Shown: positions 27,695 through 59,969, counted from the stretch's first letter. The stretch: DNA of 64,000 nt from an uncultured delta proteobacterium (GCA_963803975.1 CAWDOY010000025.1:1-64000); one strand, 5' to 3'. Numbers and translations are program-made. Notes: generated by a model from the letters alone, not told the origin.

Positions 27695-29020
27695 TTACAC
27701 ATTCGGGAATCCCATCCGTGCTGCAGGTTTTATGAGCTGCAGGACCTGCTCCGGCCGGAACCTGGCCATCTTCTGCGCAAGCTGCGGGCGCTCCTGTTTT
27801 ATACGCTCAAGGTGAGGCTGCAGGCCTGCCATGATACCGCTGTAAAGCTTGAACGGATTCATCGTCCAGCGGAGCTTTTGGCTAACAATATTGTGAAGGT
27901 AGTTATACTCATCTTCAGTAAACATCCGGTTAAAAAGCGGATAGCAGAGGAAATCGCGGTAATCGTGGGTTGCAAGCCAGTTCTGCTTCCACCAGGTGAT
28001 GTAGTTCATGACGCCGTCCCTGTTGGGCATTCCCCGATGAAGCGCCTCAGATACGGCATGTGCGGCCTTATGGCCTGAAAGCAGAGCACCCGAGTTTTCC
28101 GCTTCGGAAAACCAGCAGCTGTCGCCGACAAAAACAACATTGTCCTTAAACGGCTCTCGCGCCGGACTCCAGTTGTTGACAACACATGCGCGGGTGTGGG
28201 TTATCTCAAGCCGCGGGAACCAGCTTTTAAAGTTGCTTCGTTTTGTGAGAAACTCAAACTGCGCGTCACCGCTCACAAAAAACCAGTACTCGTCATCACG
28301 GTACACACTGGGCATAAAGCAGAACGGAACAGGCCCCAGACCGCCTGCATCATAGCTTATGCCCAGGAATATTGCCTCGGAGCGTTCGAACTCAACACCC
28401 GTGACATAATGGCTGATGGATTTTCTGGTGTTAATAAAAAGCCGCTCTTTGTTCAGGCCTGTTATCTTTGCAAGCCGTGAATTGATACCATCTGCTGCAA
28501 TACAGAAGGTGCCGACTAACCGCTCGCCTTCGCTTGTCATGATTTCCACCCCGGCAGCAGTCTTTCGCACATCTATGACATTGCGCTCAAGATAATAGCA
28601 AACCCCGGCCTTCTGCCCTTCCTCATATAAACCGTTCAGCAGCGCCCCCTTGTCAAAAACAACCGCTGGAGTACCGTTGCCAGATGCATTCAGCTCGTAA
28701 TCTCCTATCTCAATGCGATCAGTGGCATTGGGGGAAATGAAGTGGCAGGCATAAAACTCGCGGTAGTTGCCGCTGTAGTTGACGGTAAAGTTGTTGACCG
28801 GGAATACCCATTTTTTCTTTTCCCTTGAAAAATACATGTGTTCCTCGTAGAACGAGTCCATGTTCATCAGAAACATCTGCGCGCATGAGCGCTGAATCTT
28901 GGCAGGATGCGTTTTGCGCTCAAGAAGCGCCACCTTCAAACCGTTTTCCGCTGCTGTCTTTGCTGCCTCAAGACCGGACGTTCCACCACCGACGACAATC
29001 ACATCAAATTTATTTGCCAT
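27695..29020 (-). CDS. NAD(P)/FAD-dependent oxidoreductase, geranylgeranyl reductase/FixC-like family (paralog 1)
   Basis: DVIVVGGGTSG, RSC, DKGALL.GL, IAADGINS, VFVGDS. Confidence 0.85.
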   Translation of the reverse strand: MANKFDVIVVGGGTSGLEAAKTAAENGLKVALLERKTHPAKIQRSCAQMFLMNMDSFYEEHMYFSREKKKWVFPVNNFTVNYSGNYREFYACHFISPNATDRIEIGDYELNASGNGTPAVVFDKGALLNGLYEEGQKAGVCYYLERNVIDVRKTAAGVEIMTSEGERLVGTFCIAADGINSRLAKITGLNKERLFINTRKSISHYVTGVEFERSEAIFLGISYDAGGLGPVPFCFMPSVYRDDEYWFFVSGDAQFEFLTKRSNFKSWFPRLEITHTRACVVNNWSPAREPFKDNVVFVGDSCWFSEAENSGALLSGHKAAHAVSEALHRGMPNRDGVMNYITWWKQNWLATHDYRDFLCYPLFNRMFTEDEYNYLHNIVSQKLRWTMNPFKLYSGIMAGLQPHLERIKQERPQLAQKMARFRPEQVLQLIKPAARMGFPNV

Positions 29021-29068
29021 ACAGAACCCCTGAGTATTTGTTTATAGGAACCTGCTTTAAAAATGAAA

Positions 29069-29185
29069 TAGTATAGGCTGCGCTATTGTGTGTCAATAAA
29101 AAATCTCTCGAGAATATGGACAGGGGTTGTTCGGACAGCAAGTCAACAATCATGTGGTGAGTATTAAAGGGAAATAACTGCAGGT
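29069..29185. repeat. Copy C of the non-coding repeat, including a minus-strand TTGACA...TACTAT promoter
   Basis: gtatagg...attgtgtgtcaataaaaa...caggggtt...cggaca...tcaaca....tgtggtg shared with copy A. Confidence 0.78.
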
Positions 29186-29311
29186 TCAACTCCATATTTT
29201 TACAAACAAAAAAAGAAGGATTGCAGTATCCTTCCTTTTTTTATTGCCATGTTTCCTGCAGCGAAAAAGTGTTTCCTGCTATGTTCCCCGCACAATGTCG
29301 GTTGCCGAGGC

Positions 29312-57193: not shown

Positions 57194-57251
57194 CTCGTAC
57201 CAGCATAACAGATACAACAGGTTACGTAAGACAGGGAGCAGGGTGCGTTTA

Positions 57252-58158
57252 ATGTTTAAATTTAACAGGAACGCAGCAGGTGTATACCATCGCGGGAGTT
57301 GATATCGGAGGCCAGCCCGGTGAATTTCCCACCGTTCTCATTGGGAGTATTTTTTACAGCAAGCACAAAATTGTCAGTGATCCGCTTCAAGGGTGTTTTT
57401 GATGAGGAGAAAGCCCTGGCGCAATTACGGGATGAAGAAGAAGTAGCCGCTGTTACCGGCGGCACCCGCATAATCGACCCCATAGGCGATAGTGGCAAGG
57501 CACTCATAAAATATATCAGCTTTTGCGCAGACACATACCAATGCTCCCATACTGATTGATTCGCCAGTACCTGAGGCACGGTTAGAAGCGCTCAGGCATT
57601 TTGCCGGCAGCGCGGTAATGCCGCGTTTAATATACAACTCCATTGCTGAAGATTTTACTGATAAAGAGCTTGCCTGCATAAAGGAATGCGGGATAAAAAC
57701 AGCTATTGTCCTGGCCTTCAGCACAACGGCCATGCGGCCGAAAGACCGCATTAAGCTGCTGAAGCAAACGCTTCTTCCGGCAGCTGAGCGCGCCGGCGTG
57801 GAGAATATTTTAATAGACCCTGGAGTCCTTGATATACCGAGCGTCAGCTGGGCAGCCCGAACTATTTACGAAGTAAAAGAAGAATTTGGTTTTCCTGCCG
57901 GCTGCGCACCGTGCGAATGCGTTATTCATGTGGGAAAAAGTCCGACAGCGCGGCATTGCGGCATTCCAGGCTGCTGCCGTAGCCGTGTATTCTCTCACCC
58001 AGTTTCACGGGGCTGATTTTATATTTTATGGACCCATGCGGTTTGCGCCATGGATTTATCCTGCGTGTGCAACGGTGGACGCAATGCTTGCCTACGGTGG
58101 CCGTTTTTCAGGTGTTCGGCCAGCCACAAATAATCATCCCCTCTTTAAAATATTTTAA
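57252..58158 (+). CDS. mtrH: MtrH/MtgA-like methylcorrinoid:tetrahydrofolate(pterin) methyltransferase (frameshifted)
   Basis: MFKF...[53 protein letters not shown]. Confidence 0.82.
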
Positions 58159-58169
58159 AGGGACTGCAT

Positions 58170-59969
58170 GTGACAACCTGCCGGATCGAATTTCTTCCCG
58201 TTGGCACGCAGGTGCGTTGCCCGCATGGAACGTTACTCAATTATGCAGCGCGTGATGCCGGCATCGCTCTCGTCTCAGTGTGTGGAGGGGCCGGCAGCTG
58301 CGGGAGATGCAAAGTAATAATTGAACGAGGAGCGGTTTCAACGCCAACCCCTGTTAGAGCAGCAAAAACTGAGTGCGGCTGAAATCGCATCAGGGTATCG
58401 TCTGGCCTGTCAGACCCGCGTGCAGAACGATCTAACCGTTTATATTCCTCCCTTGTCAATCCCTGGTGAACTGCAGGCAAATCTGGCGTGTGAGGGTCCC
58501 GGTGAGCCTGTCGACCCGGTAGTACAGGATGTGCTCATTACGCTGCGGCCGCCAGGGTCCCTGAATCACAGCTCCTGCTGGGAGCGATTCGTCACAGCAG
58601 TTAAAAACTCCTCCGGCATCGACGTAACAAAAGCTGACCTGCCAGCCCTGCGGCAGGTTTTCTCAATCCTTGATACGTGCGGCGCTACTGCGCAGGCACG
58701 TATTCGCGCCGGGGAGTTGATCGATGCAGGGCCGCCCGGACAGCATCCCCTGGGGGTTGCAATCGACCTTGGCACGACAAAGATCGCCGCATACCTGATA
58801 GATATGTTGACCGGGAAGCTCTATAGCGCTGTGGGTATGGTAAATCCACAGTGCAGCTTTGGTGGTGATGTGATGAGCCGCATTGCCTGCGCTATGGAAC
58901 ATGGCAGCGCACAGCTTCGGCAGACCATCATTGATGGACTTAATCAGCTTATCAAAGAGCTTTGTCAGGACCCGCATAAAATTATCGAAATGGTGATCGT
59001 GGGTAACACTGCCATGCATCACCTGGTACTGGAACTGCCGGTGCACCAGTTAGGAAGTGCACCATATATTCCTGCAATAGTACACCCCGCTTGACGTCAA
59101 GGCACGCGATCTCGGCCTGGATATAGCACCGGGTGCGTACGTTCATATGGCTCCCAATGTAGCCGGCTTCATCGGCGGAGATCATGTGGCGATGGTCCTT
59201 GCAACCGGCATATATAACACACCCAAAACAGTACTGGGCATTGACATCGGCACTAACACGGAGATTGTCCTTGCCTGTAACGGTACGCTGCGCAGCACTT
59301 CCTGCGCTTCAGGGCCGGCATTCGAGGGGGGCCATATCACCTGCGGCATCCGGGCGATAAGCGGTGCCATTGAAAAAATAAAAATCAAGGATGGCGTTGT
59401 GGAGTTTCAAACCATCAGGGGTATGCCGCCGATTGGGTTATGCGGGTCCGGGATACTTGATGCTGTTGCTGAACTCACCAGGTGCGGCATCATCACGCAC
59501 CAGGGCCGGTTAGTCGCTGGCCCGGCTGTTCTCACGCGCGGCAATGCAGCAGAATTTGTGCTCGTAGCCCCGGGAAAAAAGCGGCACGGGCAAAGACATA
59601 ACCATTACGCAGCAAGATATCCTCGAAGTCCAGCTGGCAAAGGCGGCCATCCGCACCGGCATTGAGGTGCTCCTTGTGGAGGCCAATGCCGGCATTGAGG
59701 TAGTAGAGGAAATTATCTTGACGGGAGAATTCGGAACACAAATAAATCCCGCAAGCTGTATTGCAATCGGCATGTTTCCATTGTTTCCGAAAGAGCAGTT
59801 CAGGATGGTAGCAAATGCTGCCGGCCTGGGGGCAATGCGCATCCTCATTTCCAAAGCACAGAGAACACTGGCTCACGAAATAGCACAAAGGATACAGTAT
59901 CTTGAACTGATGACCTATCCCGGATTCCACAAGCAATTTGCCTCCGCGCTGTATATCCCGACAAAGTGA
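58170..59969 (+). CDS. ASKHA-domain ATP-dependent reductive activator of corrinoid proteins (RACE/RamA-like, DUF4445) with N-terminal [2Fe-2S]; frameshifted
   Basis: CGG.GSCGRC...RLACQ, AIDLGTTK, NPQ...G.DVMSRI, VGNTAM, GFIGGD, IDIGTN.E, ASGPAFEG, GLCGSG, QLAK.AI, NAAG.GA. Confidence 0.9.

Follow-up and report, generated by a model that had tools for sequence, protein, structure and literature searches.

A candidate core of anaerobic tetrapyrrole catabolism in a conserved gene block of an uncultured Desulfobacterota bacterium

FDBR, chelatase-fold and HemF-like proteins of the block

The window, by which we mean the whole stretch of DNA that was analysed, spans 64,000 nucleotides (C25:1-64000) of genome G000, a 4.25 Mb assembly with 98% completeness whose host is an uncultured, non-photosynthetic sediment bacterium of the Desulfobacterota. 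The block in question covers about 32 kb of it (27695..59969) and holds two FDBR/RCCR-like proteins, an exported ferrochelatase-like lipoprotein and a HemF-like protein, together with flavoproteins, an electron-transfer module and a corrinoid methyl-transfer set. An earlier note, made from the sequence alone, had proposed an anaerobic pathway for tetrapyrroles or another hydrophobic ring compound, and Pfam and NCBIfam profiles located the gene content that it had claimed. The block is a real, conserved and apparently undescribed system. We estimate a probability of roughly 0.65 that it is the core of an anaerobic tetrapyrrole catabolism comprising uptake, demetallation, reduction and cleavage, and a tetrapyrrole is highly probable as the type of substrate.

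Both FDBR/RCCR-like genes of the earlier note were recovered. FDBR1 (52662..53429, + strand) passes the PF05996 cut-off (43.3 against 31 bits), and its profile matches HY2 at E 6e-13. The divergent FDBR2 (53443..54106, +), with one frameshift near its start, has no Pfam match itself and was recognised as a paralogue of FDBR1 (BLASTP E 6e-9), while its profile matches PebB at E 0.001. The AlphaFold model of FDBR1 (pLDDT 92.9) has gtPebB (6qx6) as its best Foldseek match (E 1e-12, TM 0.73) and matches gtPebB, HY2, RCCR and PcyA at E 1e-12 to 1e-10, with RCCR (3agb, E 5.5e-12) tied with the FDBRs; precomputed PF06405 (RCCR) annotation is found on some homologues only. At the active-site positions of PebB and HY2, all 106 homologues share Glu100, and position 232 is Asp in 76 of them and Ser in 29; FDBR2 is without the C-terminal Asp-Pro motif.

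In a careful tree of 22 rows, chosen from 87, FDBR1 and FDBR2 lie in a clade of their own (support 99/99); RCCR, PebS and named pre-PcyA references are not among these rows, and the reference labels come from the NCBIfam scores of 114 of 150 listed representatives. Placement of FDBR1 inside the PebA, PebB or PcyA clade was rejected (approximately unbiased test, p 9e-9, 2e-4 and 9e-5). An initial, larger tree came from a rapid search and had long branches, and the clade claims rest on the careful tree.

The two proteins are predicted to form a heterodimer. Complex prediction gave an ipSAE of 0.89, compared with 0.00 for the best of three controls, with contacts agreeing at 78% or more and a partner pLDDT of at least 83, in a prediction in which the first ~15 residues of chain 2 are out of frame. 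The mark for such predictions is reached by 116 of 157 solved pairs and by 2 of 215 mismatched pairs; part of the score may reflect likeness to solved RCCR/CPO dimers of the same fold.

Two small genes follow the pair. The conserved gene at 54192..54602 (+; 135 amino acids) stands as described earlier, but its proposed SCP2 identity is unsupported: neither Pfam (PF02036 included) nor the PDB gave a match, and the one lead comes from the Atlas, where the protein falls at 0.92 in a cluster with PF02036 on 12% of its members. A 2[4Fe-4S] ferredoxin (54713..54925, +; Pfam) comes after the SCP2-like gene in most relatives and is likely the FDBR electron donor. Upstream of FDBR1, a C-terminal CCG domain that stands alone and contains an in-frame TGA (52238-52585, +) is probably a remnant, being 61% like the full CCG protein that precedes FDBR1 at locus L013. 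At another locus (L077:8099-10060), a BaiCD/BilR-like flavoenzyme with 372-376 bits, below the cut-offs, lies directly upstream of an FDBR1-like gene.

The ferrochelatase-like lipoprotein (HemH-like; 36617..38365, +, frameshifted) matches PF00762 at E 0.002, and its intact orthologue folds as a ferrochelatase in the predicted model. Since a sequence-only PDB search with this family reached ferrochelatases at just E 0.14, a fold search was needed. The model of orthologue P0120 (pLDDT 93) aligns with CpfC (9kta) at Z 24.6 over 304 residues (root-mean-square deviation 2.8), with CbiK at Z 15.6 and with FetB at Z 15.1; ferrochelatases fill its top Foldseek rows, and the modelled architecture is the two-domain class II chelatase fold. 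His320 is invariant in the family (82/82), and it may correspond to the active-site His of HemH, judged by its motif rather than by residue-level superposition. The window protein has a hydrophobic leader and a lipobox (LTASC), leaders are found in orthologues too, and it thus carries an export signal, in contrast to the cytoplasm-facing HemH and CpfC, which have none. We regard this lipoprotein as a candidate dechelatase or tetrapyrrole-binding protein.

The HemF-like gene (CPO fold; 35566..36275, -, frameshifted) has an E value of 0.003 with PF01218, whose cut-off is passed by two paralogues, and the family profile matches E. coli HemF at E 7e-10. The Asp248-Arg249 (DRGT) pair of HemF is kept in 2 of 16 aligned sequences and reads Asn-Arg in the window orthologues; His106 is mostly gone and His175 entirely. 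This loss of most catalytic residues speaks against the biosynthesis or salvage of a new tetrapyrrole cofactor or pigment, as do the export of the chelatase-fold protein and the import modules carried by the gene clusters. Such a role would fit the biosynthetic nature of the known relatives (HemF, HemG, HemH, BchE, BchNB/YZ and FDBRs), the presence of HemB in G000 and the CobN/BchH-family genes of 19 of 41 related genomes. Searches of G000 found no CobN/BchH and no reaction centre (PsaA/B, Photo_RC), and haem oxygenase (PF01126) was found in 0 of the 41 genomes, while the control matched 3/14; the absence of haem oxygenase noted for the window holds for these genomes too. We consider biosynthesis very improbable.

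Conservation of the block and expansion of its families

We compared 41 genomes of the class, 8 of which make up family f3, and 401 genomes of the phylum. In the class, FDBR-like genes occur in 31 genomes, HemH-like genes in 26, PF01218 in 29 and the FAD-oxidoreductase in 32, and each is found in 0/8 of the f3 genomes. PF05996 exceeds its cut-off in 13 of the 401 phylum genomes, all of them of this class. The block is the core of a class-restricted expansion in Desulfobacterota and one part of a genome-wide system. The FDBR stretch also occurs in metagenomes from freshwater, sediments and wetlands, from 15 studies in all (20 of the 24 runs listed).

FDBR1 homologues were followed at 27 distinct loci (29 fetched, 2 duplicates dropped), many of which stop at contig edges. 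FDBR2 and the SCP2-like gene each accompany FDBR1 at 22 of them, the HemH-like gene at 13, a GGR3 orthologue (at least 60% identity) at 10, import genes at 10, the FAD-oxidoreductase at 9, NuoF at 6, the HemF-like gene at 2 and the corrinoid set at 1. Nearly the whole gene set of the window lies within ~40 kb at G009:C2, and this locus, G004:C86 and G005:C5, from a different family, join most of the window modules. The genes thus co-occur and stay syntenic across four families, and this synteny, the predicted FDBR and HemH folds and the HemF profile homology together support the tetrapyrrole reading of the earlier note.

The same comparison bears on whether unrelated or decaying operons have come together by accident in the 32 kb, as a mosaic. 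The genomes differ in gene order, the block is interrupted by a membrane-anchored sulfatase gene (47901-50109, -), and many reading frames are broken. Single-base indels at the break positions are, however, seen in short-read contigs (at most four runs), including those at 29793 and 30380 in flavoprotein 2, and relatives carry intact versions of the genes broken in the window, so the breaks are very likely sequencing or assembly errors; the frameshift question raised earlier is answered in this sense. As the modules are also neighbours in other families at the three loci above, a mosaic is largely refuted by synteny and has a negligible chance of being true. RNA-library contigs (two runs of one study) cover most genes and were left unused as evidence, since contigs can show neither transcription nor its level. 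The sulfatase gene sits at the same place in G001 (92%), with no match in the other loci mapped.

In the genome as a whole, G000 contains 22 FDBR-like loci, which fall into 15 groups at 60% identity, as well as 6 HemF-like, 4 HemH-like and ~10 further chelatase-fold loci, ~24 GGR-like, 25 FAD-oxidoreductase and 25 AOR-family loci, and ~15 DUF1302 and ~15 DUF1329 matches. A chelatase-, CPO-, HemG- or BchE-like neighbour lies within 5 kb of 10 of 21 FDBR loci, against a background of 9.5%, a count that duplicated contigs inflate. Near-duplicate stretches of 87-98% identity (C4/C31, C24/C36, C39/C40, C40/C41 and others) suggest strain mixture or recent duplication in G000.

A second FDBR pair (G000:C8:11000-18500, L025; also L101, L102, L119 and L120), 72-90% conserved, neighbours an SCP2-like gene, ferredoxins, a BchE-like radical SAM gene and a heavy-metal P-type ATPase. 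Three nitrogenase-like N/B pairs are also present in G000, at C3:156900-171400 (L080, L100) and on C50 (L105), with chelatase-fold genes. Their B subunits best match BchB (DPOR) and BchZ (COR), with a PCP_red domain, at 136-181 bits against an equivalog cut-off of 490. Downstream of two pairs stand three genes of the chelatase fold, one ferredoxin gene and one that is GGR-like, and the pair on C50 comes after two tandem NifH-like genes. One operon of G005 unites an FDBR pair, an SCP2-like gene, ferredoxins, a BchE-like radical SAM gene and an N/B pair, and GGR-HemG-like-FDBR operons also occur.

These expansions also bear on the rival reading that these folds now serve another hydrophobic ring compound (a steroid, phenolic, N-heterocycle or carotenoid), which takes in the steroid or aromatic substrate named as main alternative in the earlier note. 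The SCP2 lead from the Atlas cluster, the VAO/PCMH-like flavoproteins, whose kind act on phenols, and the thiolase, SDR and alpha/beta hydrolase genes near some loci would agree with it. Against it, at least six tetrapyrrole-type families (FDBR, CPO, chelatase, HemG, BchE and DPOR/COR) expand and cluster together. The Oah/BamA ring hydrolase of the anaerobic benzoyl-CoA pathway is found in 8/8 genomes of family f3, which are without the system, and in 0 of the 33 others, G000 has one HGD-D locus, and FDBR-bearing genomes have 1-6 acyl-CoA dehydrogenase matches, of which steroid degraders usually carry many more. On these markers, with the acyl-CoA dehydrogenase count as the check that covered steroids, the steroid or aromatic alternative is weakened, and we rate any such substrate as distinctly unlikely.

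Flavoproteins, electron transfer and methyl transfer

Three GG-reductase-superfamily-like flavoproteins lie at 27695..29020 (flavoprotein 1; TIGR02032 64.6 bits, cut-off 158.8), 29288..30588 (flavoprotein 2; profile match, frameshifted, with the short-read indels given above) and 50511..51857 (GGR3; NCBIfam, with orthologues at FDBR1 loci), all on the - strand. The earlier assignment holds at the level of the superfamily and not as BchP/GGR orthology, as the BchP/ChlP models score far below cut-off (TIGR02023 28.6 against 343 bits; TIGR02032 65-78 against 158.8). In a PDB search GGR3 gave FAD-site matches only. The flavoprotein 1 orthologue adjoins the Nuo module in G009 and G005.

The electron module of the earlier note was recovered on the same strand. 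Beside a 2[4Fe-4S] ferredoxin (30639..30899, Fer4 E 7e-14), it comprises a NuoG/HoxU-like Fe-S subunit without catalytic domain (30941..31720, Pfam/NCBIfam), a frameshifted NuoF-like FMN/NADH subunit (31737..33646, Complex1_51K E 3e-48), a NuoE-like [2Fe-2S] subunit (33643..34083, PF01257 E 3e-33), the frameshifted PorB-like protein PorB* (34093..35015), which has no PorA partner in its operon and whose orthologue matches PorB models below cut-off, and a PorD-like ferredoxin (35042..35341, TIGR02179 69.6 bits, cut-off 60.05). The PorD/PorB*/NuoEFG-like module is repeated at five G000 loci (on C3, C14, C16, C18 and C25), often followed by a GGR-like gene, with no hydrogenase or PorA subunit in the operons examined. 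The module may be an undescribed electron-bifurcating unit.

The pair of FAD_binding_4 oxidoreductases was likewise found together with its CCG protein and ETF, again on the - strand: frameshifted ETF alpha (40046..41065; Pfam, short-read contigs), ETF beta (41190..41994, PF01012 E 1e-39), FAD-linked oxidoreductase 2 of the VAO/PCMH-GlcD family (42050..43722), an HdrD/GlcF-like Fe-S protein with CCG domain (43694..44992, Pfam/NCBIfam) and FAD-linked oxidoreductase 1 (44962..46457, FAD_binding_4 and FAD-oxidase_C). FAD-oxidoreductase 2 is 81-88% identical in 18 genomes, across families, and its best PDB matches include p-cresol methylhydroxylase (VAO/PCMH), E 6e-13, in the FAD domain only.

Between this operon and a divergent tetR gene (46814..47482, +; Pfam), whose orthologues (79-86%) keep the same place in four relatives, a palindrome search found a pair of TetR-type operators (46693..46768). 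One is a perfect 22-bp palindrome at 46693-46714 (TATTTAGAACATGTTCTAAATA), the second copy lies near 46747, and a similar site is found upstream of FDBR1 at L018. The operator appears to resemble the actinobacterial KstR box, which would agree with the rival ring-compound substrate considered above. The earlier claim of related palindromes upstream of several operons did not survive: only this one pair was found, and the looser look-alikes at ~35421, ~36366 and ~52155 differ from it in spacing. Genome-wide, the motif had 20 intergenic matches against 17.1 in shuffled sequence, and with no enrichment in five patterns a shared palindromic regulon was rejected.

The corrinoid methyl-transfer set was confirmed as complete on the + strand, with a corrinoid protein (55275..55919, B12-binding E 5e-29), a URO-D-fold methyltransferase resembling MT1 (55921..57193, PF01208 E 4e-20), an MtrH/MtgA-like methyltransferase to folate (MT2; 57274..58158) and the reductive activator RACo of the RACE/ASKHA type (58170..59969), the last two by Pfam/NCBIfam; all but the corrinoid protein are frameshifted. 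The MT1-like protein scores 33 bits against a cut-off of 244, far below the MtaA and CmuA cut-offs. Seven genomes carry its gene; in six of them it adjoins FDBR- or HemF-like genes, and in the seventh it adjoins import genes on a short contig. One of the six cases is an operon in which the methyltransferase gene is joined by import genes, by orthologues of the HemF-like gene and by a GGR-like and two FAD-oxidoreductase genes. The set is present as noted earlier, and demethylation by it would be only an accessory to the system.

Two paralogous Cys-rich proteins with twin-arginine-like signals (38416..39055 and 39030..39750, +) share a CPYK motif and are kept beside HemH-like or GGR2 genes; copy 1 is conserved and syntenic in G004 and G009. 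Pfam and PDB searches found no family for them. A V4R/ATC-hydrolase identity was rejected (hhalign probability 0.1% with a small mixed alignment, and no credible PDB match).

Proposed pathway and relation to known systems

At least six tetrapyrrole-type folds expand with importers in a non-phototroph without haem oxygenase, so the catabolism of scavenged pigments is the simplest account, with tetrapyrroles of the chlorophyll, haem or bilin type as the likely substrates taken from the sediment, and the many import modules indicate uptake rather than synthesis. We infer all of the reactions in the following scheme. The exported ferrochelatase-fold lipoprotein would bind the pigment and strip its metal, as proposed for IhtB/FetB, and DUF1302/DUF1329/BNR/MMPL modules would import it. 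The NuoEFG-like/PorD/PorB* module and ferredoxins would then feed low-potential electrons to the predicted FDBR1:FDBR2 heterodimer and the GGR-like flavoproteins, which, with the HemF-, HemG- and DPOR/COR-like paralogues, would reduce bridge, vinyl and ring double bonds and give colourless compounds of the porphyrinogen or bilinogen type. In the most speculative step, VAO/PCMH-like flavoproteins with the CCG protein and ETF might oxidise methyl or methylene-bridge carbons with the addition of water, as PCMH does with p-cresol, yielding pyrrole alcohols or aldehydes for AOR-family enzymes; ring cleavage by water without O2 is speculative. Only some lineages would also use the corrinoid set to pass a methyl group on to folate. 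Somewhat short of even odds, the class may have specialised in feeding on pigments by reversing the chemistry of chlorophyll and haem, through extracellular dechelation, reduction of the macrocycle by an oxygen-independent FDBR heterodimer and HemF-, HemG- and DPOR/COR-like enzymes, and cleavage of the reduced ring at its methylene bridges by PCMH-like flavoproteins.

Several observations weigh against this interpretation. In the HemH-like family, the column of E. coli HemH Glu275 holds Leu in 78 of 82 sequences (by a weak alignment, E 7e-4), and the protein may therefore only bind its ligand. Since the flavoproteins are not BchP/GGR orthologues, the side-chain reduction suggested earlier is without specific support. 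No ring-opening enzyme was identified: the best HutW match in G000 has 212 bits against a cut-off of 400, and the best BchE-like match has 207 against 481. AOR genes are not enriched near FDBR loci (1/21), and the URO-D-fold methyltransferase is found in just 7 of the 41 class genomes. The N/B family occurs in 23 of these genomes, is missing in several FDBR-bearing ones and is present in two (G016 and G024) without FDBR matches. Because kin are not independent, the profile over the class genomes amounts to about one gain or loss, and duplicated contig stretches push up the copy numbers and linkage counts of G000. As every homologue is distant and below its equivalog cut-off, the folds may have been turned to another planar ring compound.

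The substrate could also be a tetrapyrrole that serves for metal harvest or as an electron sink, as in gut bacteria with bilirubin, with the reduced products released intact. The exported chelatase fold resembles that of P. gingivalis IhtB/FetB, a putative reverse ferrochelatase according to PMC12094164. A heavy-metal P-type ATPase and FeoB adjoin paralogous clusters, no dsrA was found in G000, and the recognisable enzymes are mostly reductases, with no ring-opening enzyme among them. On the other hand, ~25 FAD-linked oxidoreductases, 25 AOR-family genes and the ETF modules imply many oxidative steps, and 15 FDBR groups with many import modules would exceed the needs of metal harvest. We judge this explanation unlikely and retain catabolism of the pigment itself.

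Compared with characterised systems, the gene set would resemble FDBR/RCCR and IhtB-type chemistry, and it falls outside every characterised clade tested. FDBR1 shares its fold with the FDBRs (PebB 6qx6, HY2 6kme, PcyA, PebA and pre-PcyA) and RCCR 3agb, keeps both acidic active-site positions, adjoins a ferredoxin gene and stands in tandem with FDBR2 as in pebAB. The system differs in forming its own clade with no haem oxygenase in 41 genomes, in its 15 paralogue groups within one genome and in a predicted heterodimer with a subunit that is without the Asp-Pro motif. The HemH-like protein shares its fold with HemH/CpfC, CbiK and IhtB/FetB and an export signal with IhtB, and its invariant His, in an NH/SH motif, may be the counterpart of the His of these chelatases. 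It differs in its ~580 amino acids with large insertions, in the Leu at the Glu275 position, in having 4 copies beside two further chelatase-like families and in the linkage of its genes to FDBRs and not to TonB iron uptake. The HemF-like family has homology to HemF (E 7e-10) and the common FDBR/RCCR/CPO fold, but is without most of its motifs and has six copies in G000, where families of O2-sensitive enzymes otherwise abound.

ChuW/ChuY, the gut bilirubin reductase BilR and the dechelatase HmuS are examples of O2-independent tetrapyrrole handling by anaerobes, as proposed here; ChuW/ChuY carry out anaerobic haem degradation (cited in PMC10151467). These systems harvest iron or reduce one class of bond, whereas the present set looks like a many-step one, and G000 has no HutW-level match and no CobN-type protein, nor has the block a BilR ortholog (BilR being compared through its NCBIfam model only). 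With the MtaABC, MtgABC and CmuA types the corrinoid set has four components in common (URO-D-fold MT1, corrinoid protein, MtrH/MtgA-like MT2 and RACE activator); it differs in the low MT1 score of 33 bits against 244.

Anoxic sediments receive very large inputs of chlorophyll and haem, and no organism or enzyme set is known to mineralise these pigments there. If the class does feed on pigments in the way outlined above, it would be the microbial sink that has been missing for tetrapyrroles in such sediments, and the FDBR/RCCR/CPO fold would have a large anaerobic radiation; the system also bears on sedimentary pigment and porphyrin biomarkers. We found no description of the system in the literature searched, from which most subscription papers are missing.

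The text consulted from PMC10151467, PMC13446030, PMC13193486 and PMC12094164 does not describe the system. The first of these holds that known enzymes of the FDBR/RCCR/CPO fold are all oxygen-dependent, directly or upstream, a view that the system challenges, and places sequences of Ca. Schekmanbacteria between FDBRs and RCCR. Related sequences may sit uncharacterised in published outgroups or "uncharacterized lineages" (PMC10151467, PMC13446030), and the system offers candidates for the early "archae-FDBRs" asked for in PMC13446030. The analysis points to one lineage and to a small set of soluble proteins, and the two-subunit reductase that it predicts is open to assay by standard anaerobic bilin-reductase methods.

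A few features of the surroundings are recorded here. Window positions 1-7000 have a GC content of 0.62 against 0.51, rank 3 of 577 blocks in tetranucleotide distance and encode glycoside-hydrolase-like and Thr/Pro-rich secreted proteins; this part may be foreign DNA, or the contig may be misjoined near its start, and C47:224000-245000 is similarly atypical in composition. A Cys-rich lipoprotein-like open reading frame just before the block (26307-27011, -) has no family match, is almost uncovered in the four runs compared and is strain-specific. Genes for topoisomerase VI A and B (60329-63248, -) lie just downstream of the block.

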